From Terriglobales bacterium (GTDB lineage: Bacteria > Acidobacteriota > Terriglobia > Terriglobales > Acidobacteriaceae), in assembly GCA_049273945.1 (NCBI GenBank), contig JBASRS010000029.1:1241-65240 (forward strand): DNA of 64,000 nt, read 5' to 3'. Position numbers and translations under genes: made by a program. Below the pieces are notes generated by a model. The model saw only the letters and a program-made list of their open reading frames with translations. It was not told the origin of the DNA and did not search any database. This document shows, piece after piece, positions 1,836-35,854 of this stretch; positions within the stretch are counted from its first letter, which is position 1, and each line of letters begins with the position of its first letter.

Positions 1836-1887
1836 AAACTGGCAACTGGCTACCGGCAACTGAGAACTGGGAACCGAGAACTGAGAA
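1836..1887. repeat. heptanucleotide array (AAACTGG CAACTGG CTACCGG CAACTGA GAACTGG GAACCGA GAACTGA GAAC) abutting the bfr stop codon
   Basis: Strict period 7 read directly from the sequence. It ends at CTA 1888-1890, which is the TAG of bfr. Nt 1858-1884 are identical to 26842-26868. Confidence 0.85.
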
Positions 1888-2361
1888 CTACTCTTCGCCA
1901 AGTTGCTGCGCCAGATAATTCTCGTACGTCATCTCTTCGATGGCGTGCAGCTGCCCTTCCAGGTAGTCGATGTGGTGTTCTTCATCCACCAGGATCTTCT
2001 CCAGCAGCTCGCGCGAACCGTTGTCGCCGACCGCGACGCACGCTTTGATCCCGTCGTTCAGCCGCTTCACCGCGGTGTACTCCAGCTGCAGGTCGTTCTC
2101 CAGCTGCTGCTTGAGGGTTTGCCCGATGTTGATCTTGAAATAGTCGCTCATGTTGGGAGCTCCATCGAGCAGCAGGATGCGCTCCATCAGAATTTCCGCG
2201 TGCTGCATCTCTTCGATGGATTCCTTGCGAGTGTGCTTGGCCATTTTTTGGTAGCCCCAGTTCTCGCACATCTCCCCGTGCAAGAAATACTGGTTGATGG
2301 CCGTCAGCTCCGCCTTGAGCACTTCATTCAAGATCGCAATGACTTTTGCGTCGCCTTTCAC
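1888..2361 (-). CDS. bfr: bacterioferritin
   Basis: 157 aa: MKGDAKVIAILNEVLKAELTAINQYFLHGEMCENWGY...EEMQHAE...DEEHHIDYLEGQL. Ferroxidase-centre E/H ligands sit in the expected spacing. Confidence 0.95.
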   Translation of the reverse strand: MKGDAKVIAILNEVLKAELTAINQYFLHGEMCENWGYQKMAKHTRKESIEEMQHAEILMERILLLDGAPNMSDYFKINIGQTLKQQLENDLQLEYTAVKRLNDGIKACVAVGDNGSRELLEKILVDEEHHIDYLEGQLHAIEEMTYENYLAQQLGEE

Positions 2362-2468
2362 GGTTCGCCTCTCGAGGATGGAAAATTAGCGCGCCTGAAC
2401 ACTCTGACGCTCACACGCAGGTGCGGCCTGGAGGATCAGTGGCGAACCGATTGTACTAGAAGAAGGAA

Positions 2469-3257
2469 TCAGGAATTGGATCCGGAAGCGGCGGCGGAGG
2501 CAGCCTCGGTCGCGCTTCCATTGGTTGGCTCGGCCGGTTTGGGCGGGGCCTCGCTATGCACCACGCGGTGATTCAGGCAATAGAGCGCCAGCTCCAACCG
2601 GTCCGCGACCCCCAGCTTGTCGTACACCTTGCGCAGATAATTCTTGACGACCTGCTCGGTCGTTCCCACGCGCAAAGCAATTTCTTTGTTCTTCATGCCT
2701 TGAGTGACGCAGGAAACGATCAGCGACTCCTTGGGCGTGAGCTGGACTTTGGGACGCGATCCTGCGGGGCGGAGACCCTGAGTACGAAATGCGTCCAACA
2801 CCCAGGCAATCGCCCGGCTTTCCAGCCACGGCTCACCCTGGGCAACTTTCCGGAGGCAATCCACCAGCATCTCCGGCTCCACTTCCCGAGACACGATGCC
2901 GTGGGCGCCGCGCCGGAACAGTTCCAGCGTCATCTCCTGGTCCGGCTCCTGCAGCACAACCACCAGGCGGCACTTCACGTTTTGCCGTAGCAGATCGGAA
3001 ACCGCATCGGCCGGGCTCGGATTCAGTGCCGCTTCGAAAATCAGAATGTCGGCTGAAAATTTTTGAATGGCGGTGATCGTCTGGGGCATGGTCTCGGCCT
3101 GGCCGACGACCCGGATGTCATCTTCAAGCGCGAAGATCTTGCGCAGCCCCGCGCGAAAAATGGCCTGGCTGTCGGCCACAATGACGCGGACCGTGCCCTT
3201 GCCGTCGTCGGGCGGCAAGACTTCGTTTTGCTCCACGCTTACCGGAGTGCTCCCCAT
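2469..3257 (-). CDS. LuxR/NarL-family regulator with a degenerate (Asp-less) receiver domain
   Basis: The C-terminal HTH reads LTPKESLIVSCVTQGMKNKEIALRVGTTEQVVKNYLRKVYDKLGV. The receiver is VRVIVADSQ...ADILIFEAAL...RLVVVLQ...GAHGIVSRE, so the phospho-acceptor position is Glu and the conserved Lys position is Arg. Confidence 0.85.
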   Translation of the reverse strand: MGSTPVSVEQNEVLPPDDGKGTVRVIVADSQAIFRAGLRKIFALEDDIRVVGQAETMPQTITAIQKFSADILIFEAALNPSPADAVSDLLRQNVKCRLVVVLQEPDQEMTLELFRRGAHGIVSREVEPEMLVDCLRKVAQGEPWLESRAIAWVLDAFRTQGLRPAGSRPKVQLTPKESLIVSCVTQGMKNKEIALRVGTTEQVVKNYLRKVYDKLGVADRLELALYCLNHRVVHSEAPPKPAEPTNGSATEAASAAASGSNS

Positions 3258-3272
3258 CGGTCCCCTTGCTTC

Positions 3273-3629
3273 CTACTTGCGCTCGAACCGGTACTCGTCA
3301 ATGACCACGCCCACGCCGCGCCGTCCACCGTCCTGAAAACTGCGTACCACGCGGCCTCGGCAGTCCACCTGGACATCGGCTTCCGCGCCGACAACGTCGG
3401 CGGGCAGCGAGATCGTGAAATCCACGGCCGAGCCCACCGGCACATCGGCGTCCATGTGGAACAGCACGCCGTTCGCAGAGATGTTTTCCGTCTCCACCGT
3501 TTTTCCGCCCGCTCCCGATTTCAATGCGACTGGAAGCTTGATGGGAAAGCGAGGCGCGCCCTGCACATCCGTGTAACCCTTGCGGCTCTTGCTGACTTCA
3601 CCCACGGTTTGTTTGCCTACGTCAGACAC
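3273..3629 (-). CDS. PilZ domain protein
   Basis: 118 aa. APRFPIKLPV (RxxxR-like) and ENISANGVLF (D/NxSxxG) motifs occur in a small beta-barrel-sized protein, 16 nt upstream of the LuxR regulator on the same strand. Confidence 0.65.
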   Translation of the reverse strand: MSDVGKQTVGEVSKSRKGYTDVQGAPRFPIKLPVALKSGAGGKTVETENISANGVLFHMDADVPVGSAVDFTISLPADVVGAEADVQVDCRGRVVRSFQDGGRRGVGVVIDEYRFERK

Positions 3630-3851
3630 GGTTGCGAGAACCTTCCTTCCCTCTGGTGCCGTTACGCCACCCGATCGAGCGCTGTGCCCATTTCAGGGCG
3701 AGATTACACCCCCGCATCTGACTCGCAAAGTTACGGAAGTCATGGAACGGAAGCAGCGAAGTGTCGGTGGTACAGGGACTTAGGGGCGATACGAAAGTGG
3801 CTGTGTTGGCCGTCACAGCGGGTTACTGGCCAGTGCAGTACATTCCCCAGT

Positions 3852-3886
3852 CAAGCATTCAGCGCTCAGCATTCAGCATTCAGTCT
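3852..3886. repeat. heptanucleotide array (CAAGCAT TCAGCGC TCAGCAT TCAGCAT TCAGTCT), left arm of the inverted pair around the four-helix-bundle gene
   Basis: Period 7 read directly. Nt 3854-3883 are complementary to 4312-4341 at 26 of 30 positions by hand alignment. Confidence 0.85.
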
Positions 3887-3926
3887 CTGAGAGGGTTTGG
3901 CATGGCGCTGGATAGGAGGCAGGATA

Positions 3927-4301
3927 ATGAAAGACTTCCGAGACTTGATCGTGTGGCAGAAAGCACACCAACTTACGTTAGCCGGCTATCGGGATACGGC
4001 GCGGTTTCCTAGAGAAGAGATCTACGGTCTGACCAGCCAGATTCGCAGGTGCTCCGCCTCAATAGCAGCAAACATTGCGGAGGGTTGCGGCAAGCGGGGC
4101 AACAATGAGTTCCAGCGCTTCCTGCACATCGCGACCGGATCCGCAAGCGAGCTTGAGTATCACTTCTTGCTCGCAAGGGACCTCGGCTTCCTCGCCGATG
4201 AAGCGTACCGGCACCTCGAGAGTTCGGTCACCGAGGTGAAGAAGATGCTGGCGGGACTCATCAAGAAGATCGAAGCGGACCGATTGAATGCGGAAGACTA
4301 A
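3927..4301 (+). CDS. four-helix-bundle protein (23S rRNA intervening-sequence protein / Avd-like family)
   Basis: MKDFRDLIVWQKAHQLTLAGYRDTARFPREEIYGLTSQIRRCSASIAANIAEGCGKRGNNEFQRFLHIATGSASELEYHFLLARDLGF... is the hallmark pattern of this family. The ORF-track start at 3897 is probably too early. Confidence 0.85.
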   Translation: MKDFRDLIVWQKAHQLTLAGYRDTARFPREEIYGLTSQIRRCSASIAANIAEGCGKRGNNEFQRFLHIATGSASELEYHFLLARDLGFLADEAYRHLESSVTEVKKMLAGLIKKIEADRLNAED

Positions 4302-4311: not shown

Positions 4312-4339
4312 CTGAATGCTGAGTGCTGACTGCTGACTG
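4312..4339. repeat. heptanucleotide array (CTGAATG CTGAGTG CTGACTG CTGACTG), right arm of the inverted pair; abuts the mrdA stop codon
   Basis: Period 7. It begins 10 nt after the TAA of the four-helix-bundle gene and ends at CTA 4340-4342 (TAG of mrdA). TGA occurs in all three frames (4313, 4320, 4327). Confidence 0.85.
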
Positions 4340-6301
4340 CTACCGTAGTCCCGGCGCCGCCACCGCCAGCGGAACCCTCTTCCGCGAAACATCCATTACA
4401 AACCGGCCACCGTGTAAATGATCTTCACCCTCGTCCCCATCGCCGGCATCCGTCCACAAGCCGCCGATCTCTACTTTCTTTGTCCCCGGCCCAGCCATCT
4501 TGGTAGGCGTCCGCCGCTGCTTGTCTACATACGCCTTGATGACCTGGGTCGCCAGCCGCGCCGCCAGCTTCCCGTGCTCGCCGCCTTCAAACAACACACA
4601 CACGATGATATCCGGATTGCGTCGCGGCGCGAATCCCACGAACCACCCGTTCTGCGCGAAATCTTCGTCGTTCTTATGCTTCGCGCGAAGTGCAAGCGAG
4701 ACGGTTTGCGCCGACCCGGTCTTGCCCGCAATGTCGATGCCGGGCACGTGCGCCGAGGGAGCTGTGCCCTCCGGCAGCACTACCCGCGCCAAGGCATTCG
4801 TGATCAGGTTCCATCCGTTCGAGTCGATGGGAATGTTCTTCACTTCCGTGTAGCGCAGAATCTCGACGTAGCCTTCCGGCAGGCCAGTCGGGTTGACCAC
4901 GTGCGGCACGACCAAGCGTCCGTCCATCGAGACCGCAGCCACCGCGCGCATCAACTGCACCGGCGTGATCGCGACCGCGCCCTGGCCGATGCCCACGGAA
5001 ATCGTTTCCCCGGCAAACCACTTCTGTTTGAAGTTGCGGATCTTCCACTCTTCCGAAGGCATCACGCCGCTCACTTCGTTCGGCAGATCAATCCCGGTCT
5101 TCTGCCCCAACCCCAGAGCGGTCGCGTATTTTGCGATGCGGTCGATGCCGAGTTTTTCCGCCAGCGTATAGAAGAAGACGTCGCAAGACTGATAGATCGC
5201 TTTCTCGATATCGACTGGTCCGTGACCGCTTTTCACCCAGCATCCGAATCGCCGGCCATAAAAAGTGGCGCCGCCATTGCAGTTCACATGGAGCGTCTGG
5301 GCAACGCCTTCCTGCCAGCCCGCGACCGACATGATGACTTTGAACGTCGAACCGGGCGCGAGTTGCGCCTGGATCGCTTTATTCAGCAGCGGCTTATCCG
5401 GATCGTTGATCAGCTTCGACCACTCTTCTTTCGAAATCTTCACCGCGAAGTGATTGGGATTGAACGTCGGCCGGCTCACCATCGCGAGAATTTCCCCAGT
5501 GCGCGGCTCCATGGCTACGATCGCGCCGTTCTTCCCCTCCAGCGCCTGTTCCGCCGCGATCTGCAAATCCAGATCCACCGACAGCTTCAACTGCTTGCCC
5601 GGTTCTGCCGGCGTCTCATCCAGTCGTCCCACCTCGCGGCCACGGCTGTCGACGATCGCGCGCCGCGACCCGTTCTTCCCCATCAAAAGGTTGTTGTATT
5701 GCTTCTCCACGCCGCTCACGCCGACTACGTCTCCGGGGCTGTAGAGCTCGAACTGCGGCTGGTTGAGCATGTCTTCGCTGACTTCGCCCACGTAGCCAAT
5801 CATGTGCGCCATGAACCCGTTGCGCGGATACAAACGACGGTGCGCCATGATGGTGTCGAGTTCCGGCAATTCGTTCTTGTGCGACTCGATGAACGCCAAC
5901 TCGTCGGGTGTGATGTCTTCCTTCAGAAAAATCGGCTGGTAGCGCGGCAAGGAAGCAAAGCGGCGCACGCGTTGGCGCACTTCTTCCGCAGTCAGATGCA
6001 GACCCTGCGCAATCAGGTCCGCGTCCGCGTTCAGGTCGCGCGACGAATCGCGCAACAGCAGCGCCGAGAACGACGGATAGTTGTCAACGATGACGCGCCC
6101 TTCGCGGTCCAGAATCTTTCCGCGCGGGGCAAGAATCGGCACGTTGCGGATGCGGTTCATCTCCGCCAGCAGCGCGTACTTGTCGCTCTGCATGACCTGA
6201 AGGCGCCACAACCCGTAGGCCAGCACCAGGAAAATAGCCAAGATGATGTACTGCACGGCGGTGAGCCGGATGGCGGAGACTTTTTCTTCGCGGCCGAACA
6301 T
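4340..6301 (-). CDS. mrdA: penicillin-binding protein 2 (elongation-specific transpeptidase)
   Basis: N-terminal TM anchor, then the motifs GSTFKV (SxxK), SCD (SxD/N) and KTGSAQ (KTG) in order. Size is about 650 aa. ATG at 6301 is preferred over TTG at 6304. Confidence 0.95.
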   Translation of the reverse strand: MFGREEKVSAIRLTAVQYIILAIFLVLAYGLWRLQVMQSDKYALLAEMNRIRNVPILAPRGKILDREGRVIVDNYPSFSALLLRDSSRDLNADADLIAQGLHLTAEEVRQRVRRFASLPRYQPIFLKEDITPDELAFIESHKNELPELDTIMAHRRLYPRNGFMAHMIGYVGEVSEDMLNQPQFELYSPGDVVGVSGVEKQYNNLLMGKNGSRRAIVDSRGREVGRLDETPAEPGKQLKLSVDLDLQIAAEQALEGKNGAIVAMEPRTGEILAMVSRPTFNPNHFAVKISKEEWSKLINDPDKPLLNKAIQAQLAPGSTFKVIMSVAGWQEGVAQTLHVNCNGGATFYGRRFGCWVKSGHGPVDIEKAIYQSCDVFFYTLAEKLGIDRIAKYATALGLGQKTGIDLPNEVSGVMPSEEWKIRNFKQKWFAGETISVGIGQGAVAITPVQLMRAVAAVSMDGRLVVPHVVNPTGLPEGYVEILRYTEVKNIPIDSNGWNLITNALARVVLPEGTAPSAHVPGIDIAGKTGSAQTVSLALRAKHKNDEDFAQNGWFVGFAPRRNPDIIVCVLFEGGEHGKLAARLATQVIKAYVDKQRRTPTKMAGPGTKKVEIGGLWTDAGDGDEGEDHLHGGRFVMDVSRKRVPLAVAAPGLR

Positions 6302-7295: not shown

Positions 7296-7820
7296 ATGAC
7301 CGATCCGCGCTACCCCATCGGCAAATTTTCTTTCGACGGACCCCTGACCGCAGAACAGAAACAGCAATACCTCAACGATATCGAGCAGACGCCCGCCCGC
7401 CTACGCGCCGCCGTCAGTGGGCTTTCCGATTCGCAGTTGAATACGCCCTACCGTGAAGGCGGTTGGACCGTGCGCCAACTCGCCCATCACGTTCCCGACA
7501 GCCACATGAATGCCTACATCCGCTTCAAGCTCGCCTTGACCGAGGATGACCCGACGATCAGACCTTACATGGAAGACCGCTGGGCCGAATTGCCGGAATC
7601 GAGGCAGGCTCCGATCGAGATCTCGCTCGCCCTGCTGGAGTCGCTGCACCGGCGCTGGATTATGGTTTTGCGAAATATCAAAGAGTCCGATTGGAAGCGC
7701 ACCTTCCGTCATCCTGACCTAGGCCCCATGACTCTGGAGAAAAACCTCGCCCTCTATGCCTGGCACGGACGCCATCACGTAGCGCATGTCACGACCTTGC
7801 GGGAGAAGATGGGATGGTAG
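7296..7820 (+). CDS. DinB/YfiT-family metal-dependent hydrolase (bacillithiol-transferase-like)
   Basis: MTDPRYPIGKFSFDGPLTAEQ...WTVRQLAHHVPDSHMNAYIRFK...LYAWHGRHHVAHV has the His triad spacing typical of YfiT. GGAGG at 7284-7288 precedes ATG 7296. Confidence 0.8.
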   Translation: MTDPRYPIGKFSFDGPLTAEQKQQYLNDIEQTPARLRAAVSGLSDSQLNTPYREGGWTVRQLAHHVPDSHMNAYIRFKLALTEDDPTIRPYMEDRWAELPESRQAPIEISLALLESLHRRWIMVLRNIKESDWKRTFRHPDLGPMTLEKNLALYAWHGRHHVAHVTTLREKMGW

Positions 7821-7826
7821 GAAGGG

Positions 7827-7930
7827 CAGCTGCCAGCTACGAGCCGCGAGCTTCGAGCAACCCAGTTGTGACACGCTTGCGTTCTTGTGCCTGGGTTGCT
7901 CGAAGCCTGAAGCTCGTGGCTCGAAGCCTG
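7827..7930. repeat. inverted pair of heptanucleotide arrays forming a long hairpin between convergent genes (probable bidirectional terminator)
   Basis: Left array: CAGCTGC CAGCTAC GAGCCGC GAGCTTC GAGCAAC. Right array: GGGTTGC TCGAAGC CTGAAGC TCGTGGC TCGAAGC. GCTTCGAGCAACCC (7850-7863) pairs perfectly with GGGTTGCTCGAAGC (7893-7906), leaving a 29-nt loop. It lies between TAG 7818-7820 and CTA 7931-7933. Confidence 0.85.
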
Positions 7931-8560
7931 CTAAGTGAGGCCTACCTCCCACAGCAGATAGCTCATCGCCTCCCGCATCACCGCCGTAAATCTCTGCCAG
8001 AGCGATCGCGGCCGCGATTCTGGACGTGGCGCCACTTCCGCCCGCACTCCCTCATGTTCGAGCAAGGCGCGGATGCGGAACACATGGTAGGCATCGCTTA
8101 CCGCGATGCACGTGTGCATGCCATTCTTGCGCATGATATTCGCCACGCGCGCCGCCGATTGCGCCGTGTCCGAACTCTGCGTCTCGGCAATCAGATCCTT
8201 TTCCGGAATACCGCGCCGCGAAAGGTGGTCGCGTCCGACGCCGCCCTCGCTGAAGTCCGGATCCTGCCCCGCGCCGCCGGTCGTGATCACCACCGGAGCC
8301 ATGCCTTTCTGAAACAAATCAAAAGCATGATCCAGCCGGGCTTTGTACACGGGCGACGGGCGTCCGGCATATTCCGCCGCGCCGAAGACGACAATCGCAT
8401 CCGCCGGGTGCGCTGGTGTTTCGCCGGCCGCGCGGGCAATGCGAAATCCGGTCACGCCCAGAAACAGCAAAAACGCACCCGCCGCAGCCAGCAAGAACAG
8501 CAACCAGGGATGCCGCGGTGAGGATTTTTCTTCGTGAGGTGAGGTGCGGTCTTCCAACAT
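7931..8560 (-). CDS. YdcF/ElyC-like DUF218 family protein
   Basis: N-terminal TM segment, then ADAIVVFGAAEY..RPSPVYKARLDHAFDLFQKGMAPVVITTGG...AQSAARVANIM...IAVSDAYHVFR, which is the DUF218 pattern. Confidence 0.8.
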   Translation of the reverse strand: MLEDRTSPHEEKSSPRHPWLLFLLAAAGAFLLFLGVTGFRIARAAGETPAHPADAIVVFGAAEYAGRPSPVYKARLDHAFDLFQKGMAPVVITTGGAGQDPDFSEGGVGRDHLSRRGIPEKDLIAETQSSDTAQSAARVANIMRKNGMHTCIAVSDAYHVFRIRALLEHEGVRAEVAPRPESRPRSLWQRFTAVMREAMSYLLWEVGLT

Positions 8561-9321: not shown

Positions 9322-10170
9322 ATGAAGCAAGACGCGAAATCTGCCGTGGACGTCGCTGACCGCTCCCGATTGCGCCGCCTCTCCGGCCGCCACAACCCGC
9401 GCCTCAAGGAGTTGCGGCAGGCGTTCCGCCGTGGCGAACTGACGCCCCAAGGCGAATGCGCCATCGAAGGAATCAAGCTGCTCGACGAAGCGATTCGCAG
9501 CAGCCAGCGCCTGGGTGGAGTGTTCTTCAGCGAATCAGCGCGCCCCCTGGCCGAAAAGCTGCTGCCCCAGATCAACGCCCGCGTCGAAACCCTGCTCCTG
9601 CCCGACGCTCTCTTCAACTCGATCGTCCCCAGCGACGCTCCTCAAGGGGTGGCGGCTCTGGTCAAGATTCGCGCCGTCTCGGCGAATCAGTTACTCGAGG
9701 GCTCCGACGTTGGGCCCATCGTAGTCGCTGCTGGTCTTCAAGACCCGGGAAACCTGGGCACGATTCTTCGCTCCGCTGAAGCTTTCGGCGCGGCTGGCGT
9801 ATTTCTGACTGAAGGTACCGCCAGTCCGTACAATGCAAAAGTCCTGCGCGGCTCGGCAGGATCTATCTTTCGCCTGCCCGTCGTCCAGATCGCCTCGGGC
9901 GAACTGATTTCGCTCCTGCGCCAGCGCGGCGCGCGCCTGGTTGCGACTTCCTCGCACAAAGGAACTCCGCTACCCCAAGCTACCTGGACTCTGCCCCTGG
10001 CCATCTTCATCGGCAACGAGGGCGCCGGTCTGTCACGCGATCTCTTGCGTCAAATGGACGAGACCATCGTCATCCCGCAGGCTGCGCCGGTTGAATCACT
10101 GAACGCTGGAGTCGCTGCCAGCATCGTGCTCTATGAATGGGCACGTCCCCGATCCGGGACCTCTTCATGA
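9322..10170 (+). CDS. TrmH/SpoU-family RNA 2'-O-methyltransferase
   Basis: LQDPGNLGTILRSAEAFGAAGVFL, IFIGNEGAGLS and IPQAAPVESLNAGVAASIVLYE are the three SpoU motifs. Confidence 0.85.
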   Translation: MKQDAKSAVDVADRSRLRRLSGRHNPRLKELRQAFRRGELTPQGECAIEGIKLLDEAIRSSQRLGGVFFSESARPLAEKLLPQINARVETLLLPDALFNSIVPSDAPQGVAALVKIRAVSANQLLEGSDVGPIVVAAGLQDPGNLGTILRSAEAFGAAGVFLTEGTASPYNAKVLRGSAGSIFRLPVVQIASGELISLLRQRGARLVATSSHKGTPLPQATWTLPLAIFIGNEGAGLSRDLLRQMDETIVIPQAAPVESLNAGVAASIVLYEWARPRSGTSS

Positions 10171-11525
10171 GCCTATTCGCGCCCATCCCGAACCAGGATT
10201 CTTCCGCACCAGGCGCGCGCCCACTCGCCGACCGCATGCGTCCCCGCACGCTCGACGAATTCGTCGGCCAGGAGCACCTCGTCGGCCCTGGCAAGCCCCT
10301 GCGCGTGCAAATCGAGCGCGACGACCCTGGCTCGATGATCTTCTGGGGCCCGCCCGGCACCGGCAAGACCACGCTCGCCAAAATCATCGCCAGTGTCACG
10401 AAAGCGGAGTTCATCGAGTTCTCTGCCGTCCTCGCGGGCATCAAGGAAATCAAGCAGGTCATGGCCGACGCTGACCGCGCACGCCAGTACGGTACTCGCA
10501 CGATCGTCTTCGTGGACGAGATTCACCGCTTCAATAAGGCCCAGCAGGACGCCTTCTTGCCCCACGTCGAGAAAGGCAGCATCCGCCTGATCGGCGCCAC
10601 TACGGAGAATCCATCCTTCGAAATCATCTCCGCGCTGCTCTCGCGAACTCGCGTGTACGTGCTGAAGCAACTCACCGAAGACCAGATCGTGGTTCTTCTG
10701 CGCCGCGCCATCGCCGATGCAGAACGCGGCCTCGGCTCATTGCGTCTCGAAACATCCGAAGAAGCGCTAAGGAAAATCGCCGCCTACTCCAGCGGCGACG
10801 CCCGCAGCGCCTACAACGTGCTCGAGGTCGCGGCCTCGTTGGCCCAGCAGGCCAGAACGACCGTGATTTCCGACGACATGGTCCAGGAGGCCGTACAGAA
10901 GCGCGTTCTGCTCTATGACAAAGCTGGAGAAGAGCACTACAACCTGATCTCGGCGCTGCACAAATCCGTCCGCAACAGCGATCCCGACGCCGCCCTCTAC
11001 TGGCTGGCCCGCATGCTCGAAGCCGGAGAAGACCCGCTCTACATCGCGCGCCGCGTCGTTCGCATGGCCGTCGAAGATATCGGCCTCGCCGAGCCCGGAG
11101 CTCTCGCTCTCTGCATGGCCGCTCGCGACGCGGTGGACTTCATCGGCATGCCCGAAGGCAACCTGGCTCTCGCTCAGGCTGTCGTTTATCTGTCGCTGGC
11201 GCCGAAGTCGAACGCGCTCTACACCGCCTACGCCGCGGTTCAGGAAGACGTTGAACGCACCGCCGCGGAACCCGTCCCGCTCCACCTGCGTAACGCCCCC
11301 ACCGGGCTAATGAAAGGCCTAGGTTACGGCAAGGACTACCAGTACGCCCACGATGTGGAGGGCAAAGTCGCGGGCATGCAATGTCTTCCCGACAGCCTGC
11401 GCAATCGCACCTATTACCAGCCCACCAGCGAGGGTATGGAGAAGAGAGTTCGCGAGCGCCTGGAAGAAATCAAAAGGCTCCGGCAGACGAAATCTAATCG
11501 AACAAAAAGAGAATCGGAAGGCTGA
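10167..11525 (+). CDS. rarA: replication-associated recombination protein A (AAA+ ATPase)
   Basis: [15 protein letters not shown]...[19 protein letters not shown]...[23 protein letters not shown]...[11 protein letters not shown], plus the MgsA C-terminal domain. ATG 10167 overlaps the upstream TGA as ATGA. Confidence 0.95.
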
Positions 11526-11548
11526 TTCTCGCAATCTGACACGTATAC
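11526..11548. repeat. short heptad-type tail after the rarA stop (TTCTCGC AATCTGA CACGTAT), contains the GCAATCTGAC word
   Basis: It directly follows TGA 11523-11525. The word GCAATCTGAC recurs at 30541 and 31149. Confidence 0.6.
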
Positions 11549-14373: not shown

Positions 14374-14778
14374 CTACCCGAACCGCGCTCGGTGCTCTCT
14401 CAGAACGCACCGGTCCATTACGACCAACATCCCCGCCTTGCGCGCTTTTTCGGCGGCCCGCTCGTTGATGACGTCTTCCTGCAACCAGATTGCCGGGATC
14501 TTCAACCGGATCGCCTGCTCCACGATCTCATCCACGTATTCCGGCCGACGGAACACATCCACCAGGTCAATCTTGTCCGGAACGTCGAGCAGAGAAGGAT
14601 AAGAATTCTCTCCCAGCGCCTCAGTAATCTGCGGATTCACCGGAATAATCCGGTATCCCTGCAACTGCAGGTATGCCGAAACGCCATGACTGGGCCGTAA
14701 GGGACTACCCGATAGCCCAACCACAGCGATGGTCTTGACCCGCGACAGCAGTTCGTAAATAGGATCCGATTGCTTCAA
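14374..14778 (-). CDS. CoA-binding domain protein (YccU/YneT-like)
   Basis: ...KTIAVVGLSGSPLRPSHGVSAYLQLQGYRIIPVNP....LGENSYPSLLDVPDKIDLVDVFRRPEYV..IVEQAI..KIPAIWLQ... TTG 14778, preceded by GAGGG, gives about 134 aa. The ORF-track start at 14862 would run through the heptad hairpin. Confidence 0.8.
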   Translation of the reverse strand: MKQSDPIYELLSRVKTIAVVGLSGSPLRPSHGVSAYLQLQGYRIIPVNPQITEALGENSYPSLLDVPDKIDLVDVFRRPEYVDEIVEQAIRLKIPAIWLQEDVINERAAEKARKAGMLVVMDRCVLREHRARFG

Positions 14779-14787
14779 ACGATGGCC

Positions 14788-14873
14788 CTCGCAGTTGCGA
14801 GTAGCGAGACACGAGCAGCGATCCAGAATTGCGGTAACCCTGCCACACTCGCTACTCGCCACTTGCTACTCTC
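14788..14873. repeat. inverted pair of heptanucleotide arrays (NNGCGAG / YACTYGC) forming a hairpin
   Basis: Left array: CTCGCAG TTGCGAG TAGCGAG ACACGAG CAGCGAT. Right array: CACTCGC TACTCGC CACTTGC TACTCTC. GCGAGTAGCGAG (14797-14808) pairs perfectly with CTCGCTACTCGC (14848-14859), loop 39 nt. The right arm overlaps TAG 14866-14868 of the upstream gene. Confidence 0.85.
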
Positions 14874-22793: not shown

Positions 22794-22920
22794 CGAGAAT
22801 TCCTCCTGCAGACCGCCTGGTTGGACGTTACCCACGTAATTTCCGTTTAGTACCAATCGTTCCAATTCCATTCCAAATCAGGCAATCTTCTATTTGGATG
22901 CAATCCTAACAGGGAAACCA

Positions 22921-25836: not shown

Positions 25837-26847
25837 ATGAAACAAACTCTCGGTGTTCTAGCTGAAAAGCTGGGAGGTCGCGTACTCGGCGATCAGGCGA
25901 TCGCCATAGCCAACGTGGCCAGTATTACTTCCGCTGCTCCAGATTCATTGGTCTTCGTCGAGGACCTGAAGAATCTGGAGCGCTCTCTCGGCTCCCCCGC
26001 CGCCGCCATCATTGCGGGAGAGTTCGCCGCGAATGCCGCTGCCTCCAAACCGCTCTTGATCTCTTCCCAGCCTCGTCTGACCTTCGCCCGAGCCGCGAAA
26101 CTCCTCTACGACACTGGCAAAGTGCAAAGCGCCATCCATGCCTCCGCCATCGTTCCCGCCTCCGCCCGCGTCGGTAAGAACGTCGCGATCGGCCCGGGTG
26201 CCGTCATCGGAGAGCGCGTCAAAATCGGCGATGGGAGCTCAATCGGCCCTGGTTGCGTGATCGGCGACGCCGTGCAAATCGGCGCCAACTGCCGCTTCGA
26301 CGCCAACGTCACAATCTATTCCGGCACGACGCTCGGCGACCGTGTCGTCGTCCAAGCCGGCGCCGTTTTGGGCAGCGAAGGCTTCGGCTACGTCCGCGAC
26401 TCCCAGACCGGACGTTACGAGCAATTTCCCCAAATCGGACGCCTGGTCATCGAGGACGACGTCGAGATCGGCGCAAATTCCACCATCGACCGCGGCGCGC
26501 TCGACGAAACCCGCATCCGCCGTGGCACCAAAATCGACAACCTGGTGCACGTAGGCCATAACGTGCAGATCGGCGAGGATGTAGTCATCGCCGCCCAGAC
26601 CGGCCTCTCCGGCAGCGCCGTGGTCGAAGACAACGTCATCATCGGCGGCCAGGTCGGCATCGCCGATCACGTCCGTATCGAAGCCGGCGCGATCCTCGGC
26701 GCACAAAGCGGCATCCCATCGAAGAAGGTGATCCGCGGCAAAGGCATCGTTTTCTGGGGAACTCCGGCCCGCCCCATCCGGGAGTACCTTAAGGAGTTGG
26801 CGTTCCTATCGCGAGCGGCCCGCAAGCATCGTGGAACTGAGAACTGA
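25837..26847 (+). CDS. lpxD: UDP-3-O-acylglucosamine N-acyltransferase
   Basis: MKQTLGVLAEKLGGRVLGD...SLVFVEDLKNL..., followed by a long run of hexapeptide (left-handed beta-helix) repeats and a C-terminal helix. Confidence 0.9.
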   Translation: MKQTLGVLAEKLGGRVLGDQAIAIANVASITSAAPDSLVFVEDLKNLERSLGSPAAAIIAGEFAANAAASKPLLISSQPRLTFARAAKLLYDTGKVQSAIHASAIVPASARVGKNVAIGPGAVIGERVKIGDGSSIGPGCVIGDAVQIGANCRFDANVTIYSGTTLGDRVVVQAGAVLGSEGFGYVRDSQTGRYEQFPQIGRLVIEDDVEIGANSTIDRGALDETRIRRGTKIDNLVHVGHNVQIGEDVVIAAQTGLSGSAVVEDNVIIGGQVGIADHVRIEAGAILGAQSGIPSKKVIRGKGIVFWGTPARPIREYLKELAFLSRAARKHRGTEN

Positions 26848-26868
26848 GAACTGGGAACCGAGAACTGA
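26834..26868. repeat. heptanucleotide array (GAACTGA GAACTGA GAACTGG GAACCGA GAACTGA) spanning the lpxD stop and ending 3 nt before the next ATG
   Basis: Period 7. The lpxD TGA at 26845-26847 is inside unit 2. Nt 26842-26868 are identical to 1858-1884. Confidence 0.85.
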
Positions 26869-29559: not shown

Positions 29560-29646
29560 ATTTGAATTAGCCAGATCATCTGCGACCCGAGCCGCGCGAG
29601 TATGCATCCCCGACTTCTGAGCTCTTACCCTGACCTCTGCATTCCC

Positions 29647-30027: not shown

Positions 30028-30534
30028 GGCAAGATTGTAAACACCCCGAACGCATACCGCGAGCCCCAGGCGATCCAAGCACACCAGCGGCGCGGGGTTT
30101 CACTCGCTTTCAACACAGAGACAGCTGCTGGCAGTCTGTATTGAGACGAAAAGCGCCCAGTTGCACAAGACAGTGACGCACATAGATGGCCTGCGATCGC
30201 TTGTGAGTAGCGACCAATCTAGCCAGCGATGAAATCCAGTAGGGCAGACCAAAGAGCAGTTCCATAATTCATAACTCGCCGCATCCTCACGGTTGTAACC
30301 TCCCGTCCCGCAACGAGTATTTCTCCATGGCCAGGAGTGGTGTAATTCGTGCCTTGTTACAGAGTGTCTGACCAAGATCAATACGGGGAGACAGTTAACA
30401 ACATTTTGTCTCAACCACTTAGGTCTTGAGGGGAGGTTCGATCTTGAGCGCGAAGTCAATCCACAAAGTTGTCAGTACATTACCGTCTGTTTTGTTTTTC
30501 GCCGGGTTAAGCACAGGCCAAACAACCAAGGGCA

Positions 30535-30570
30535 CAATCTGCAATCTGACCTCTAACCTCTGCACTTGAA
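30535..30570. repeat. heptad-type tail (CACAATC TGCAATC TGACCTC TAACCTC TGCACTT) abutting the frame-corrected STAS stop codon
   Basis: Period 7. It contains GCAATCTGAC and ends at TCA 30571-30573. Confidence 0.65.
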
Positions 30571-30934
30571 TCACGCTGTCCCCGTGTTGGCCAGTGCTTC
30601 CACTGCTTCCCAGGTGGTGGGAAAAGTCATGAAAAAGTTGTGCACTTTCGTGATCTGCAAAACCTTTTAGGACTCTGGGTGTCACGCCGGTCAGAACCAG
30701 GCACCTTCCCGTTTTCTGATGCGACACATAGGCGGCAACCAGCGAGCCCAGCCCCACCGAGTCGATGTAAGGCACATCGGACAGGTCGAGAATGATGGTC
30801 TCTGCGTTCTCGTTGCGAACCGCCCGTTCGAACTGAGGCGTGGTTTCAACGGTCAACGGGCCACGCAGCAGCAACACCCGCTGCTCGTCGGTCACGCCCG
30901 CATATCGCTCGACTGTCAGTTCCTGGGCAACCAT
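30571..30934 (-). CDS. STAS-domain anti-sigma-factor antagonist (SpoIIAA/RsbV-like), interrupted by a 1-nt frameshift near 30663-30664
   Basis: Frame A reads ...IILDLSDVPYIDSVGLGSLVAAYVSHQKTGRCLVLTGVTPRVLK. After dropping one G in AAAAGGTTTT, the +1 frame reads VLQITKVHNFFMTFPTTWEAVEALANTGTA*, the expected STAS C-terminus. The uncorrected 171-aa ORF tail is not protein-like. Confidence 0.7.
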
Positions 30935-31138: not shown

Positions 31139-31174
31139 CTTACTTCCGCAATCTGACTTCTTACGTCTGCAATC
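31139..31174. repeat. heptad-type array (CTTACTT CCGCAAT CTGACTT CTTACGT CTGCAAT) abutting a stop codon
   Basis: Period 7. It ends at CTA 31175-31177 (TAG of the downstream minus-strand gene) and contains GCAATCTGAC. Confidence 0.7.
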
Positions 31175-31639
31175 CTACTGGGGCTTCTGCTCGGTAGGCT
31201 TCTGCTCGGGCTTCTGTTCTGCCGGTTTCCGCTCGTCTTTCTTCGCCTCCGGATGATCCTCGTAAATCGAGTACTGTCCCTGCGGACGCTTCAGTCGAAT
31301 GGTGATCTCTATCTCCGGCTTGTTAACGTCATAGTCTTCCCCAAAAGTCTGGAAGCCCTGCGCCAGTACCTGCACCCGCAGCGGGCCATACGGGATGCCG
31401 TCGAAACTGGTCCGCCCCTCGGTGTTGGTCTTCAGCTGAAAGCCCGTGTTCTTCTGCTTGCCCTTCTTATTCACCGGATGCATGATCACGCTCGCGTTCT
31501 TAACCGGCTTGCCGTTGTAATCCCGCAAAACGACAAACGCCAAAGCCGCGTATTGCTCATCATCCTGCGCCACCGCCACGTTCATCCCGAATCCAACCAG
31601 CAGAAGCAACCCCATCACAACCGAGAGACTTCTTCTCAT
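31175..31639 (-). CDS. secreted carboxypeptidase-regulatory-like (transthyretin-like beta-sandwich) domain protein with a Lys/Pro/Glu-rich tail
   Basis: Signal peptide MRRSLSVVMGLLLLVGFGMNVAVA. Then FVVLRDYNGKPVKNASVIMHPV....GFQLKTNTEGRTSFDGIPYGPLRVQVLAQGF, and the tail KKDERKPAEQKPEQKPTEQKPQ. Confidence 0.6.
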   Translation of the reverse strand: MRRSLSVVMGLLLLVGFGMNVAVAQDDEQYAALAFVVLRDYNGKPVKNASVIMHPVNKKGKQKNTGFQLKTNTEGRTSFDGIPYGPLRVQVLAQGFQTFGEDYDVNKPEIEITIRLKRPQGQYSIYEDHPEAKKDERKPAEQKPEQKPTEQKPQ

Positions 31640-31879: not shown

Positions 31880-31909
31880 TTGACAGCCTGCCACTCATAT
31901 TTCTATAAT
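31880..31909 (+). promoter_or_regulatory. sigma-70-type promoter of groES-groEL
   Basis: TTGACA (31880-31885) - 18 nt - TATAAT (31904-31909). Both hexamers match the consensus exactly. Confidence 0.7.
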
Positions 31910-31935
31910 TAGCACTCAACGGTCTTAAGTGCTAA
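31909..31935 (+). promoter_or_regulatory. CIRCE operator (HrcA binding site)
   Basis: TTAGCACTC-AACGGTCTT-AAGTGCTAA versus consensus TTAGCACTC-N9-GAGTGCTAA (one mismatch). It overlaps the -10 box by 1 nt. Confidence 0.9.
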
Positions 31936-32005
31936 CAGACCGTAGAATTCCTGGGAAACCCCAGCATTCAAACCCGCTCAACCTCACTGAAAGGAGTACG
32001 CAAGC

Positions 32006-32335
32006 ATGGCTACGAAGTTTACCCCGCTGCATGACCGCATCCTGGTCCGTCGCGTGGAAGAAGCCGAAACCACCCGCGGCGGGATCATCATCCCCGACTC
32101 CGCGAAAGACAAGCCGCAGGAGGGCGAAGTCATCTCCGTCGGCAAGGGCAAGATCAGCGAAGAAGGCAAGGTTCGTCCTCTCGATGTGAAGGACGGCGAC
32201 CGCATCCTGTTCGGCAAGTATTCCGGCACCGAAATCAAAATCGATGGCGAAGATTTCGTCATCATGCGCGAAGAGGAAGTTCTAGGAGTCCTCTCCGGCG
32301 CCGCCAAGAGAGAAACTGCCGGATCGCGCAAGTAA
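32006..32335 (+). CDS. groES: co-chaperonin GroES
   Basis: [47 protein letters not shown].....G...[39 protein letters not shown]. Confidence 0.97.
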
Positions 32336-32338
32336 CGT

Positions 32339-32388
32339 GTAGGACCGGGTCTCTGACCCGGTCGCCGAGCGCAGCGAGGCCCGGTCTT
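32339..32388 (+). repeat. REP-like element, GTAGGGAC family (copy R1) in the groES-groEL spacer
   Basis: GTAGGACCGGGT-CTCTG-ACCCGGTC followed by GCCGAGCGCAGCGAGGC. The second hairpin is degenerate. Confidence 0.7.
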
Positions 32389-32408
32389 AGGTTGTTCCTG
32401 AGACCTGA

Positions 32409-34133
<1,725 letters not shown>

Positions 34134-34175
34134 GGACAGCGATTAGCACTTAGCATTTAGCTGTTAGCTTGAAAC
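34134..34175. repeat. heptanucleotide array (GGACAGC GATTAGC ACTTAGC ATTTAGC TGTTAGC TTGAAAC) abutting the groEL TAA
   Basis: Period 7. TAG occurs at 34144, 34151 and 34158, so it falls in all three frames. Confidence 0.85.
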
Positions 34176-34177
34176 GA

Positions 34178-34207
34178 AGCCCCGCTCACAGAGCGGGGCT
34201 TTTTGTT
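34178..34207. terminator. rho-independent terminator, usable from both sides
   Basis: AGCCCCGCT-CACAG-AGCGGGGCT followed by TTTTGTT. It is preceded by an A-rich run for the convergent minus-strand gene. Confidence 0.8.
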
Positions 34208-34253
34208 GGGCGAAACAGAGTCCGGACTCCACCGCCTGCAGGAAACCCCGGGC

Positions 34254-35000
34254 TTAGGCCGCCCGCGCCCGCCGGGCTGCGGAGCGCTGCCACTTCGGCT
34301 TCGGCTTGGCACGTTGTTCGCTCCGATGTTGCTCGCGGTCTTCGCGCGCGAAGCTCTTCTTCTTTGCCTCGGAACCGAAGATCTGTTGCCACTTCCCATT
34401 CTTGAAGATGATCTGGTAACCACCCGAAAGAATCTGAAATGGTTTGGTGACCTTGTCTAGTTGGTCGAAGCGCACCGACCCGGGCTTGTGGAAATCCTCG
34501 AAATACGACGGGTACACGAAGTCACTCATCTCGATACCATCGACCGCGAAGCTCAACGCCTCAACCGGGTCCGCACTCTCGTAGGCATAGACGGTCTTCG
34601 GATTGGGCCCCGTCGTCATTAGATTAATGGCCGGATCGACCAGCATCTCCACGAGTTCGTGCGATGCCGAGACACTCACCAACTGCTTGTCGTCGAGTGT
34701 GGTCTTGACGAAGACCTTGGAGATCGGCAACCCGTCCGGAGTCAGCTCATGATAGGCCAGTGCGCCCGCTTGATCGGCATTGTCCAGAAACACCACCGCC
34801 CACGCGCCCTTTTCGAAGTCGGTAGTTTTGATCAGCTTCGCGGGTGTGCCCCACACGGGCGCGACAAAGTTATCCACATAGGCCTGCATGGCGGTGATCA
34901 GATTGTCAAAGTCGACCTCGAGATCCGTGGTCGCCTTGTTGAAACAAGCAATAGTCGGAACTTCACCCTGGTTAAATGCGCCAAATACCGTGGTATTCAT
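34254..35000 (-). CDS. hypothetical protein (248 aa) with a basic C-terminal tail
   Basis: GGGAGG precedes ATG 35000. MNTTVFGAFNQGEVPTIACFNKATTDLEVDFDNL...GALAYHELTPDGLPISKVFV...SASHELVEMLVDP...; the tail is KKKSFAREDREQHRSEQRAKPKPKWQRSAARRARAA. I do not recognise a family. Confidence 0.6.
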   Translation of the reverse strand: MNTTVFGAFNQGEVPTIACFNKATTDLEVDFDNLITAMQAYVDNFVAPVWGTPAKLIKTTDFEKGAWAVVFLDNADQAGALAYHELTPDGLPISKVFVKTTLDDKQLVSVSASHELVEMLVDPAINLMTTGPNPKTVYAYESADPVEALSFAVDGIEMSDFVYPSYFEDFHKPGSVRFDQLDKVTKPFQILSGGYQIIFKNGKWQQIFGSEAKKKSFAREDREQHRSEQRAKPKPKWQRSAARRARAA

Positions 35001-35154
35001 GAAAACCTCCCTTTTCAAGAGTCTTCGCAAGTGTTAGTTGATTACTACCGTGGGAAGGGGCCCTGGGCCGAGGAAGTGACTGCAAGTATGCGCGTGTGCC
35101 CGACCGCTGTCAACACTACCGTCCAACGTATCCCCGTGTTGCAGCAATGCACGC

Positions 35155-35191
35155 GTAGGGACCGCCGCCCCCGGCTGTCCGCGAGCGCGAC
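35155..35191 (+). repeat. REP-like element, GTAGGGAC family (degenerate copy R5)
   Basis: GTAGGGACCGCCGCCCCCGGCTGTCC-GCGAGCGCGAC. It shares GTAGGGAC...GGCTGTCC with the copy at 11549. Confidence 0.55.
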
Positions 35192-35217
35192 ACGGCGGCA
35201 TGGGAGACCTGTACTAA
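35191..35217 (+). pseudogene. relic 3' end (last ~8 codons) of a second groEL-like gene
   Basis: CAC GGC GGC ATG GGA GAC CTG TAC TAA encodes HGGMGDLY*, versus the groEL end HGGGMGDMY* (CACGGCGGCGGCATGGGGGACATGTACTAA). It is followed by the same heptad-array-plus-terminator layout as groEL. Confidence 0.55.
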
Positions 35218-35266
35218 GAGCAGCTACGAGCTTCGAGCTACGAGCTGTGAGCTTGAACCTGAGCCC
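35218..35266. repeat. heptanucleotide array (GAGCAGC TACGAGC TTCGAGC TACGAGC TGTGAGC TTGAACC TGAGCCC)
   Basis: Period 7. It abuts the relic TAA and shares CGAGCTTCGAGC with the array at 7841-7860. Confidence 0.85.
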
Positions 35267-35290
35267 CGCCGCGAGGCGGAGCTTTGGTTT
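35262..35290. terminator. rho-independent terminator-like hairpin
   Basis: AGCCCCGCC-GCGA-GGCGGAGCT followed by TTGGTTT. It has one mismatch and is related to the groEL terminator stem AGCCCCGC. Confidence 0.55.
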
Positions 35291-35323
35291 CGACACAATT
35301 CACTAAGAGCCGCAATCTGCGTA

Positions 35324-35854
35324 TTATTCTCCGCCGCTCGAATTCCCGGGCTTAGCTTTTCCTCGTTTCTTCGGTTTAACCTTGCTGTCAGTGGCGCAAT
35401 CCGCGGTCCCCTCTTGCTGAACCGCCACGATAATCATTTCGTACGGCAGACGAGTCGTTGCCGGTTCTTCGGTCGCCATCACCGCGACTTCGGATAGGTT
35501 TACGCGAGGTATGCCAAGGACCTGAATGCGGTCTCCCGTGGACAGTTTGGCCACCTCGCACGCCGGTCTGGTGCCCTTCACGAACACCATGCGACGTGCG
35601 TCTTGGGTGACCGCTTGCTCGTCATCGTCGGTGTCGAACACGTTGGCCAGCACGAACAACCCGTCGTCCCCTTCCTGGACAGCACCGGCCAGCTCAATCA
35701 CAAACTCCGCGTAGTTGTACTTGCCTATACAACTGATGGTTGGTTTGGTAAAGGTAATCCTGTAACCCCACGCGACCGCGCTGGGGCTTTTCTTGCAGCG
35801 CCGGTGTAGGGACGGGTGTCCGACCCGTCCCGCCGAGCGCAAGCTCGGCACCAT
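35324..35854 (-). CDS. hypothetical protein; N-terminus uncertain because the first in-frame ATG lies inside a REP element
   Basis: The protein-like part is ...ISCIGKYNYAEFVIELAGAVQEGDDGLFVLANVFDTDDDEQAVTQDARRMVFVKGTRPACEVAKLSTGDRIQVLGIPRVNLSEV... There is no ATG/GTG/TTG between codon 19 of the ORF-track model and this region. Confidence 0.4.
   Translation of the reverse strand: MVPSLRSAGRVGHPSLHRRCKKSPSAVAWGYRITFTKPTISCIGKYNYAEFVIELAGAVQEGDDGLFVLANVFDTDDDEQAVTQDARRMVFVKGTRPACEVAKLSTGDRIQVLGIPRVNLSEVAVMATEEPATTRLPYEMIIVAVQQEGTADCATDSKVKPKKRGKAKPGNSSGGE
35806..35849 (+). repeat. REP-like double hairpin, GTAGGGAC family (copy R2)
   Basis: GTAGGGACGGGT-GTCCG-ACCCGTCCC (9-bp stem) followed by GCCGAGC-GCAA-GCTCGGC (7-bp stem). 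Confidence 0.8.

Follow-up and report, generated by a model that had tools for sequence, protein, structure and literature searches.

Repetitive extragenic palindromes (REP) and REPINs are short repeats at gene 3′ ends, often arranged as inverted hairpin pairs, and inverted copies of them stand on either side of the RAYT gene. Tandem heptanucleotide repeats are a different class, known in Cyanobacteria, Beggiatoaceae, Bacteroidetes and Geobacter; an origin by slippage has been proposed for them (PMC4679880, PMC2700814, 2022 Nostoc preprint). The intervening sequences (IVSs) of rRNA that carry an S23p/PF05635 open reading frame (ORF) have a terminal stem of 28 bp, which RNase III cleaves, and their protein forms homopentamers (PMC4990558). 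A period of seven also occurs in the target of HutP, a ring-shaped antiterminator that reads the A and G of an XAG triplet every 7 nt (U498/U505/U512), 5′ to 3′, beside a terminator stem (PMC2425495). Here we analyse 64,000 nt of the Terriglobales (Acidobacteriota) contig JBASRS010000029.1, referred to as the window, where heptanucleotide arrays lie between genes and, beside mrdA, frame a gene of the PF05635 family. Heptanucleotide repeats and the four-helix-bundle (4HB) protein of 23S IVSs are both widespread and neither has an assigned role. Three findings make the question directly testable: inverted heptamer arrays of constant polarity around the gene in four phyla, arrays of the same kind at gene ends across the genome, and a period-7 NAG code that fits a known mode of protein-RNA recognition.

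Heptamer arrays frame a PF05635 gene

The period-7 tracts of the window are probably (YAG-N4)n arrays of the type called short tandemly repeated repetitive sequences (STRR), belonging to the same class as the arrays that frame PF05635 cassettes. The cassette of the window consists of three parts:

3854-3883, plus strand: 5′ arm, AGCATTC AGCGCTC AGCATTC AGCATTC AG, the YAG-type strand
3927-4301, plus strand: gene for the 4HB protein (PF05635 23S_rRNA_IVP, 4.5e-38; TIGR02436 of NCBIfam, 3.7e-38)
4312-4341, plus strand: 3′ arm, CTGAATG CTGAGTG CTGACTG CTGACTG CT, overlapping the mrdA stop codon (CTA 4340-4342)

The two arms are inverted, 30 nt long, 87% complementary and 428 nt apart, and enclose the PF05635 ORF. 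Read in the sense of mrdA (identified by Pfam Transpeptidase and PBP_dimer), the 3′ arm becomes TAGCAGT CAGCAGT CAGCACT CAGCATT. The relatives of the 4HB protein in the PDB, 2GSC and 2RLD, have five chains each. A weak similarity to the Avd protein of diversity-generating retroelements was seen, with the Avd models at 26 bits against cut-offs of 40 and 80; such an element was rejected, as these scores are sub-threshold and the neighbours are PilZ and mrdA instead of a reverse transcriptase with template and variable repeats. PADLOC gave no match for the 4HB protein or the neighbouring uncharacterised proteins.

The same arrangement recurs in other genomes. A metagenome scan with the 4HB protein of the window returned 80 loci with acidobacterial homologues of 57-83% identity. 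A 5′ heptamer array ending ∼20 nt before the start codon was present in 62 of the 72 testable loci, and an inverted 3′ array starting within a few nucleotides of the stop codon in 59 of 73. Overall, ∼85% of the 80 homologues have this arrangement. Since the background rate of arrays is 0.027 per 130 nt, the link to this one gene family is ∼30-fold above background. The modal arm is 30-31 nt, or five cores, and in 58 homologous cassettes the stem has a median of 30 bp with 88% Watson-Crick pairing. The arm pairs co-vary between loci (TCAGCAy/rTGCTGA, TTAGCAy/rTGCTAA, TTGGCAy/rTGCCAA, CTAGTAA/TTACTAG, AGCAACA/TGTTGCT), and the ungapped complementarity score is 18.8 for arms of the same locus, 12.9 for arms of different loci and 6.5 for shuffled arms.

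The polarity of the arms is constant, with AG exceeding CT in the 5′ arm of 71 loci (against 4) and CT exceeding AG in the 3′ arm of 59 (against 12). As this polarity is the same on either strand, the RNA meets (YAG-N4)n first whichever strand is transcribed, which argues for a strand-specific role, in RNA or single-stranded DNA, rather than for a symmetric duplex site. The architecture is also found in a Bacteroidetes metagenome-assembled genome (MAG; L068), the only one of 80 groEL loci, at the 21-kb scale, in which a profile search gave a 4HB gene, and in four more Bacteroidota/Ignavibacteriota loci, where (GTAGnnn)n directly follows the upstream stop codon and (nnnCTAC)n precedes the next start. 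Among 30 plasmid records with a PF05635 gene, 27 are cyanobacterial. The arms were examined in 12 of the 30. In eight of them the gene is clearly flanked by period-7 arrays, inverted relative to each other (Nostoc, Calothrix, Anabaena, Geminocystis, Stanieria, Azospirillum and, in a more complex arrangement, Pseudanabaena); two have one arm, and two have inverted arms of irregular period. The cassette with fixed polarity thus occurs in four phyla.

Two further arrangements were seen among these loci. On cyanobacterial plasmids, 4HB cassettes are embedded in CRISPR-cas operons, where they separate cas6 from cas4 or cmr2 from cmr3 (L165 401-760, L169 395-763, L170 392-748). A large clustering study lists '23S rRNA IVP' as CRISPR-linked (PMC10910872), and the location of cassettes within cas and other operons may explain that listing of the family. 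On a Melioribacteraceae contig (L182), a lone CN_hydrolase gene has a 4HB cassette on either side (1001-1399 and 2390-2399), and both cassettes have heptamer arms of their own.

Period-7 arrays of the window

The window was scanned for matches and mismatches at periods 2-21 against dinucleotide-preserving shuffles, with Tandem Repeats Finder (TRF) run alongside. The scan gave 11 period-7 segments, 10 of them intergenic, against 0.9 in the shuffles. Periods 5, 8, 9, 10 and 13 gave 0-1 segments each and periods 6, 12 and 18 were enriched only within genes; the only further intergenic enrichment was at the multiples 14 and 21, so that period 7 is the sole enriched non-triplet base period. TRF placed period-7 arrays starting at 1837, 3854, 4312, 14847, 17985, 22257, 26834, 32397, 34143 and 35222. 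Besides the cassette, the arrays and tracts, with bfr as the neighbour of the first, are:

1837-1889, minus strand: single array of ∼7.5 units directly 3′ of the bfr stop codon (TAG 1888-1890), reading TAGTTCT CAGTTCT CGGTTCC CAGTTCT CAGTTGC... in the bfr sense (lag-7 identity 0.76)
1888-2361, minus strand: bfr (Pfam Ferritin)
7827-7930, no strand: ORF-less hairpin between the convergent DinB_2 (TAG 7818-7820) and DUF218 (CTA 7931-7933) genes
14788-14873, no strand: hairpin between the stop codon (TAG) of the minus-strand gene 14866-16194 and the CoA_binding_2 start
17954-18013, no strand: hairpin overlapping the stop codon of lnt (CTA 18003-18005; lnt by Pfam), upstream of prfB
22218-22278, no strand: hairpin filling the 54 nt that separate the permease gene from the convergent gene 22275-22871
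26834-26868, plus strand: single array (GAACTGA)x5, whose second unit gives the lpxD stop codon (TGA 26845-26847; LpxD by Pfam)
29611-29646, no strand: marginal period-7 tract abutting the stop codon (29647) of the EVE-domain gene (lag-7 identity 0.45, P = 0.03), below the array threshold
30535-30561, plus strand: weaker array CAATCTG CAATCTG ACCTCTA ACCTCT, located at the 3′ end of the STAS ORF or within it (lag-7 identity 0.62, P = 0.003)
31139-31174, no strand: marginal period-7/14 tract abutting the stop codon of gene 31175-31618 (lag-7 identity 0.48, P = 0.013), below the array threshold
32397-32421, plus strand: array CCTGAGA CCTGACC CCTGACA CCTG between groES and groEL, found by TRF and the period scan
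34140-34169, plus strand: single array CAGCGAT TAGCACT TAGCATT TAGCTGT TAGCTTG, 3′ of the groEL stop codon (TAA 34131-34133)
35196-35290, plus strand: relic duplicate of the groEL 3′ end, TAA, array and terminator

When the 17 tracts of the original prediction were tested one by one, 15 had a lag-7 self-identity of 0.45-0.90 at an empirical P < 0.03. Those at 29611 and 31139 are weak, and two are not periodic, 11526-11548 (identity 0.19, P = 0.81) and 35293-35323 (0.38, P = 0.13). The intergenic period-7 tracts are thus real and most were correctly listed; the array at 32397-32421 had been overlooked. The description of the class as window-wide does not stand, since neither TRF nor the period scan gave a period-7 array in 36-64 kb. 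There was also no array in any purely divergent (promoter-only) gap of the window. Rfam matched no family to any array, its only hits in the window being a tRNA and two sub-threshold chance hits, and the motif GCAATCTG, shared by the weak tracts, had 5 dispersed hits against 2.7 expected, which is not significant.

The cumulative GC skew drops to a minimum at ∼34-38 kb and then climbs (window ∼32000-38000), which suggests a replication origin or terminus. The heptamer arrays all lie on the falling-skew side. The source of the window is a soil member of the Acidobacteriaceae/Terriglobia, and its GroEL is 93% and 90% identical to that of two MAGs from this group. In the STAS ORF (30419-30934) the Pfam domain covers residues 17-99 only, and ∼70 codons continue beyond it across the array at 30535-30561; the true STAS stop codon may have been lost or shifted by the array. 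Near-identical 42- and 51-nt tandem-repeat blocks at 57491-57631 and 58121-58273 (GCCGAACAACC.../CCGGACCCCAACCG...), ∼630 nt apart, are probably proline-rich coding repeats in duplicated genes.

A conserved core and variable spacers

At least six unit types are present in the window. AG occurs in all 15 array units and YAG in 13 of 15, where a fraction of 0.38 is expected, and 11 pairs of arrays have consensus units at most one mismatch apart, compared with 2.1 for random heptamers. The units had been described as differing between sites: the types do vary, but not freely, as they share the YAG core and recur.

Orthologous groEL arrays (L001, L002 and the relic copy) keep CAGC/AGC cores at exactly 7-nt spacing, with AGC invariant, while their spacers vary. 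The base before AGC switches in concert across all units of an array, being T, G or C by lineage. In the relic array (35219-35253: CAGCTAC GAGCTTC GAGCTAC GAGCTGT GAGCTTG) the change is from T to G in all units. A concerted change of the core combined with varying spacers would not be produced by slippage of whole units alone.

The groEL-end module (the last 22 nt of groEL, TAA, array and terminator) is present twice, at 34112-34205 and 35196-35290, and the copies flank a 258-aa ORF on the minus strand (34254-35030) with no family match. The arrangement resembles what an insertion that duplicated a long target would leave, or else what remains of a second groEL. Upstream of groESL, the promoter region at 31880-31935 has sigma-70-like elements (TTGACA 31880-31885, TATAAT 31904-31909) and the CIRCE operator (controlling inverted repeat of chaperone expression), TTAGCACTC-N9-AAGTGCTAA, at 31909-31935. 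The CIRCE half-site TTAGCAC has the same sequence as the heptamer unit found in the array 3′ of groEL and in many cassette arms, which may be a coincidence or a real relationship.

Comparison of syntenic loci (L119, L133, L140, L161-L164) indicated turnover. The bfr array is conserved, with 7.5, ∼6, ∼3 or 0 units among close relatives (L119, L133, L140, L162), and arrays and hairpins have been gained or lost between relatives of ∼86% identity after the cyclase stop codon, at the SpoU stop-rarA start junction and downstream of the response-regulator gene. In L162, a (TAATTKG)4 array is inserted exactly at the SpoU stop/rarA start junction. The called start of rarA in the window overlaps the SpoU-methylase gene by 34 nt (10137-10170), and comparison with the L162 sequence suggests that rarA really starts at 10167, where stop and start codons overlap as ATGA.

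This turnover is what would be seen if the arrays were neutral by-products of slippage, the replication machinery of the lineage favouring 7-nt slips, in the manner suggested for long simple sequence repeats, and the arrays surviving, without function, only outside coding regions. The array after the cyclase stop in L162 looks grown from local sequence, and heptanucleotides are the commonest long simple sequence repeat class in many bacteria, as Mrazek (2007) is quoted in PMC4679880. We nevertheless consider slippage unlikely as the whole explanation. It copies whole units, yet the core is fixed, the spacers vary and the core base changes in concert; it leaves the shared YAG core and the recurrent unit types unexplained, as it does the constant polarity around the 4HB gene across phyla and the ∼30-fold link to one gene family. 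Moreover, the arrays are identical in L162-L164, three independent assemblies of one species. The earlier proposal of slippage or insertion targeted at gene ends is thus plausible as a generator of arrays, given the variable copy number and the gains and losses right after stop codons, and insufficient for the core, the polarity and the PF05635 link.

Exchange of cassettes between sites

Comparison of the mrdA site between genomes gave 93-94% identity for mrdA but only 61-63% for the 4HB protein within the cassette. The arms are of different types, and their outer edges are where homology ends. The closest 4HB alleles (78-91%) are found both at the mrdA site and next to pmbA. In L161, a 69-aa PmbA/TldD C-terminal fragment (10366-10575) lies beside the 3′ arm of the cassette at the PilZ site, with ∼3 kb of extra genes between it and a truncated mrdA. 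We take this fragment as evidence of ectopic exchange between cassette sites. The breaks at the arm edges, the divergent 4HB alleles and the L161 pmbA fragment together indicate that the cassette, arms and ORF, is an exchangeable unit.

An exchangeable unit with inverted ends could be a mobile element of the REP/RAYT type or of the miniature inverted-repeat transposable element (MITE) type, with the 4HB cassette as master copy, the solo hairpins and arrays being non-autonomous or decayed copies that some unidentified enzyme would have spread. The flanking of the 4HB gene by inverted copies of a dispersed repeat, as in RAYT genes, agrees with this, as do the swapping of cassette alleles at a fixed site with breakpoints at the arms, the piece of another site's neighbour carried by the L161 cassette, the ∼100-nt hairpins present or absent between relatives and the cassettes inside cyanobacterial cas operons. 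We regard a mobile element as quite unlikely, however, because no catalytic motif is known in PF05635, a helical bundle of 120 aa, no transposase or recombinase lies beside the 4HB gene, and no target-site duplications were seen at the compared loci. In addition, the same sites (tldD/pmbA, mrdA, dprA) are occupied in many genomes, and no relative of the 4HB protein was found in viral contigs. Membership of the REP/REPIN-RAYT system itself was rejected, since the flanked gene is PF05635 only and not a Y1 (IS200/IS605-like) transposase.

Inverted pairs and single arrays

The tracts take two forms, inverted pairs that fold into long stems and single arrays. The strongest stem is that of the DinB_2/DUF218 hairpin, with arms of the (G/C)AGCTNC type at 7829-7865 and 7891-7927 (37 nt, 81% complementary) and a predicted fold of −63.3 kcal/mol (z = −4.97) for 7815-7936. 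Its arms are conserved in L162 and L161 while the loop is not, and RNAalifold on the three orthologous hairpins gave 1 compensatory pair out of 38. The hairpin at 14788-14873 has TAGCGAG/CTCGCTA arms (lag-7 identity 0.57 and 0.71) and a fold of −41.7 kcal/mol (14775-14875; z = −2.5). At 17954-18013 the arms are AGTAGCC AGTAGTC and ACTGGCTACT (17940-18015; z = −2.8), and the stem at 22218-22278, UAGUUCGUGG...CUACGAACUA, has z = −2.9 (22212-22283). This last stem has both TAG stop codons as its base, and the sequence in the sense of either gene is TAGTTCG... The prfB (RF2) frame next to the lnt hairpin is split as for programmed +1 frameshifting, with the PCRF and RF-1 domains in 16849-17793 and a stop-to-stop ORF reaching 17988.

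The single arrays at bfr, lpxD and groEL are unstructured, with z from −0.35 (bfr) to +1.2 and +0.87 for 26834-26868. The latter has a lag-7 identity of 0.86, ends 3 nt upstream of the next ATG (26872) and is in the CTR-type orientation, like the TAACTGA repeats of Beggiatoaceae (PMC4679880). A separate, canonical terminator (34171-34205) follows the groEL array. Identity of the array hairpins with intrinsic terminators was rejected, as no U-tract (T-run) lies 3′ of their stems and groEL has its own terminator. The suggestion that the arrays are building blocks of hairpin terminators therefore survives in part: four ORF-less inverted pairs do fold into stems, but these are without a U-tract and the single arrays are unstructured.

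The arrays might still be plain structural terminators or 3′-end stabilisers, comparable to REP or bacterial interspersed mosaic elements (BIMEs), with no dedicated protein and an incidental period. This is consistent with the strong stems that the four inverted pairs form at convergent or tandem gene ends, and with the DinB_2/DUF218 hairpin, whose loop varies freely between conserved arms. It seems quite unlikely, since about half of the arrays are single and unstructured, the hairpins lack a U-tract, compensatory covariation at variable positions is missing and neither the period of 7 nor the NAG core is accounted for.

Arrays and stop codons

Genes were modelled by codon usage and checked with Pfam, which recovered bfr, PilZ, mrdA, DinB_2, DUF218, rarA, prfB, lnt, lpxD, EVE, STAS, groES and groEL. 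With these boundaries, a real stop codon is found within 8 nt of 10 of the 15 arms, where uniform placement in their own gaps predicts 4.6 (P ∼ 3 × 10−4, only approximate because the arms of one hairpin are not independent). The placement at stop codons, which had been thought constant, is thus an enrichment: three of the listed arms (3852-3886, 14788-14822 and the left arm at 17954) are away from stop codons and are the partners of arms that abut one.

The stop codon is TAG in 8 of the 10 array-abutting genes and in 13 of 45 other genes (p = 0.004). It is usually part of a one-letter variant of the outermost unit, with TAG in phase with the repeat. The bfr end reads TAGTTCT then CAGTTCT, the mrdA end TAGCAGT then CAGCAGT and the end of gene 22275 TAGTTCG TAGTTCG CAGTTCG, while the pmbA end in relatives reads TGAGCAT TCAGCAA TCAGCAT, with the stop unit TGAGCAT for TCAGCAT. 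The array therefore reaches into the reading frame, which is closed inside the first unit. At such sites the repeat sets the stop codon and the C-terminus. Arrays abut stop codons because gene boundaries are the only space in which they are tolerated and because the frame is closed within the first unit.

That the arrays are all-frame stop pads, halting ribosomes that read through or frameshift at gene ends, is most improbable: forward GAACTGA/CTGANTG and TTAGCNN units do offer a stop in every frame, as also remarked for TAACTGA (PMC4679880), and the positions claimed for TGA (4313/4320/4327) and TAG (34144/34151/34158) are right, but in the sense of the gene most arrays read CAG/GAG instead of stops after the first unit, both other frames are closed within 45 nt in only 1 of 10 arrays (groEL) against 9% of 45 array-less genes, a second in-frame stop is not commoner with arrays (0.30) than without (0.42), and the arrays 3′ of bfr, mrdA, DinB_2 and DUF218 contain no further stop.

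A strand-specific role in an IVS-like system

The explanation that we favour, tentatively and as a prospect somewhat short of even, is a composite one, in which STRR-type arrays would be the strand-specific cis elements of an IVS-like cassette system, forming stems and probably bound by a ring-shaped protein. This is a function that we infer from the arrangement of arrays and cassettes. The tracts would be heptanucleotide arrays of the STRR or long simple sequence repeat (LSSR) kind, with units that read YAG-N4 in one orientation, and the same arrays would supply the two inverted terminal arms of a cassette encoding the pentameric PF05635 protein. The cassette would be an IVS-like element placed between protein-coding genes rather than inside rRNA, and the ORF-less hairpins and single arrays would be further members of the class.

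In this scheme the arrays would be transcribed and act on the transcript in cis. The 5′ (YAG-N4)n could pair with the 3′ (N4-CTR)n into a ∼30-bp stem, which would be a target for RNase III, as in rRNA IVSs, and might also act as a terminator-like or 3′-protective hairpin between convergent genes. The NAG at every seventh nucleotide would form the binding register of a ring-shaped RNA-binding protein with one unit per subunit, as for HutP, a known mode of protein-RNA recognition that such a code fits. The cassette's own pentamer would be the prime candidate for the reader, the modal arm having five cores. Units would be gained and lost in 7-nt steps by slippage.

Several observations weigh against this composite explanation. 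Nothing in it accounts for the array-free 36-64 kb. The unit types vary from site to site, which would call for either a single, loosely specific binder or several paralogues, and copy number varies between relatives as under neutral slippage. The arrays at lpxD and between groES and groEL have the opposite orientation. Outside Terriglobia the arrays do not keep to five units, with 3 to ∼37 in cyanobacteria. Array-rich loci such as L010, L015 and L062 lack a 4HB gene over 21 kb. In the 58 cassette stems, G.U mismatches are not significantly in excess of A.C mismatches (65 vs 49, p = 0.16), and the order of variant units is not mirrored between the arms (6.23 vs 6.25 after permuting the units of the 3′ arm). 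The data thus do not demonstrate base-by-base selection for pairing, and a shared motif may be all that the arms have in common.

A stronger form of the composite explanation, which we think unlikely, is that the PF05635 pentamer is an RNA- or single-stranded-DNA-binding ring that reads (NAG-N4)n, with the heptamer repeats across phyla as its operator network, controlling termination, processing or translation where genes meet. If true, the network would span Cyanobacteria (STRR), Bacteroidota, Beggiatoaceae, Acidobacteriota and others, both the 'IVS protein' and the STRR repeats, each a puzzle for more than 30 years, would gain a function, and the cassette would be an exchangeable, self-framed module.

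Comparison with known systems

The arrays of the window resemble STRR/LSSR (Mrazek 2007), the TAACTGA repeats (MacGregor 2015, PMC4679880) and the Geobacter metallireducens repeats (PMC2700814), which are likewise tandem 7-nt units in 2-8 or more copies, intergenic, with several unit families per genome. Like the arrays of the window, those repeats overlap stop codons or sit just before start codons, and their distribution among lineages is sporadic. With STRR/LSSR in particular the window arrays share an exact 7-nt unit beyond chance, a non-coding location (10/11) and several families. The GAACTGA unit is one letter off TAACTGA and fits the Geobacter consensus MTYCTGA. The TAACTGA repeats are defined by the exact unit in forward orientation just before a start codon, whereas here the unit is GAACTGA and only 26834-26868 is so placed; the array at 1837-1889, by contrast, is reverse-oriented after a stop codon. 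In general, and unlike STRR and TAACTGA repeats, most arrays of the window follow stop codons in the YAG orientation instead of standing ahead of start codons, and many form inverted pairs. No such repeats had been described from Acidobacteriota in those reports.

The dispersed repeats at gene 3′ ends and the one protein gene flanked by inverted copies recall REP/RAYT, but the repeat of the window is a tandem heptamer array and not a palindrome of 20-35 nt. The IVSs in the 23S rRNA of Leptospira and Coxiella (PMC4990558) and the cassette of the window are alike in having a PF05635 ORF in the loop of a stem of ∼28-31 bp. They differ in location, as the 23S IVSs occur at helix 25 or 45, whereas the element of the window lies between PilZ and mrdA and Rfam finds no rRNA in the window. 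A further difference is that the cassette ORF is intact and conserved, and the heptamer arrays of fixed YAG/CTR polarity that make up the cassette arms may be another.

As in the HutP sites, NAG recurs every 7 nt, and (YAG-N4)n is followed on its 3′ side by a stem or a canonical terminator. Unlike for HutP and TRAP, the candidate binder is an unrelated pentameric helical bundle; no homologue of HutP or TRAP is known here, and none was searched for. Both IVS elements and heptamer repeats at the boundaries of genes were known before. Literature searches found no paper linking heptamer repeats with the PF05635 gene or IVS elements; their association, the constant polarity, a stop codon lying inside the first unit and the occurrence in Acidobacteriota look new.

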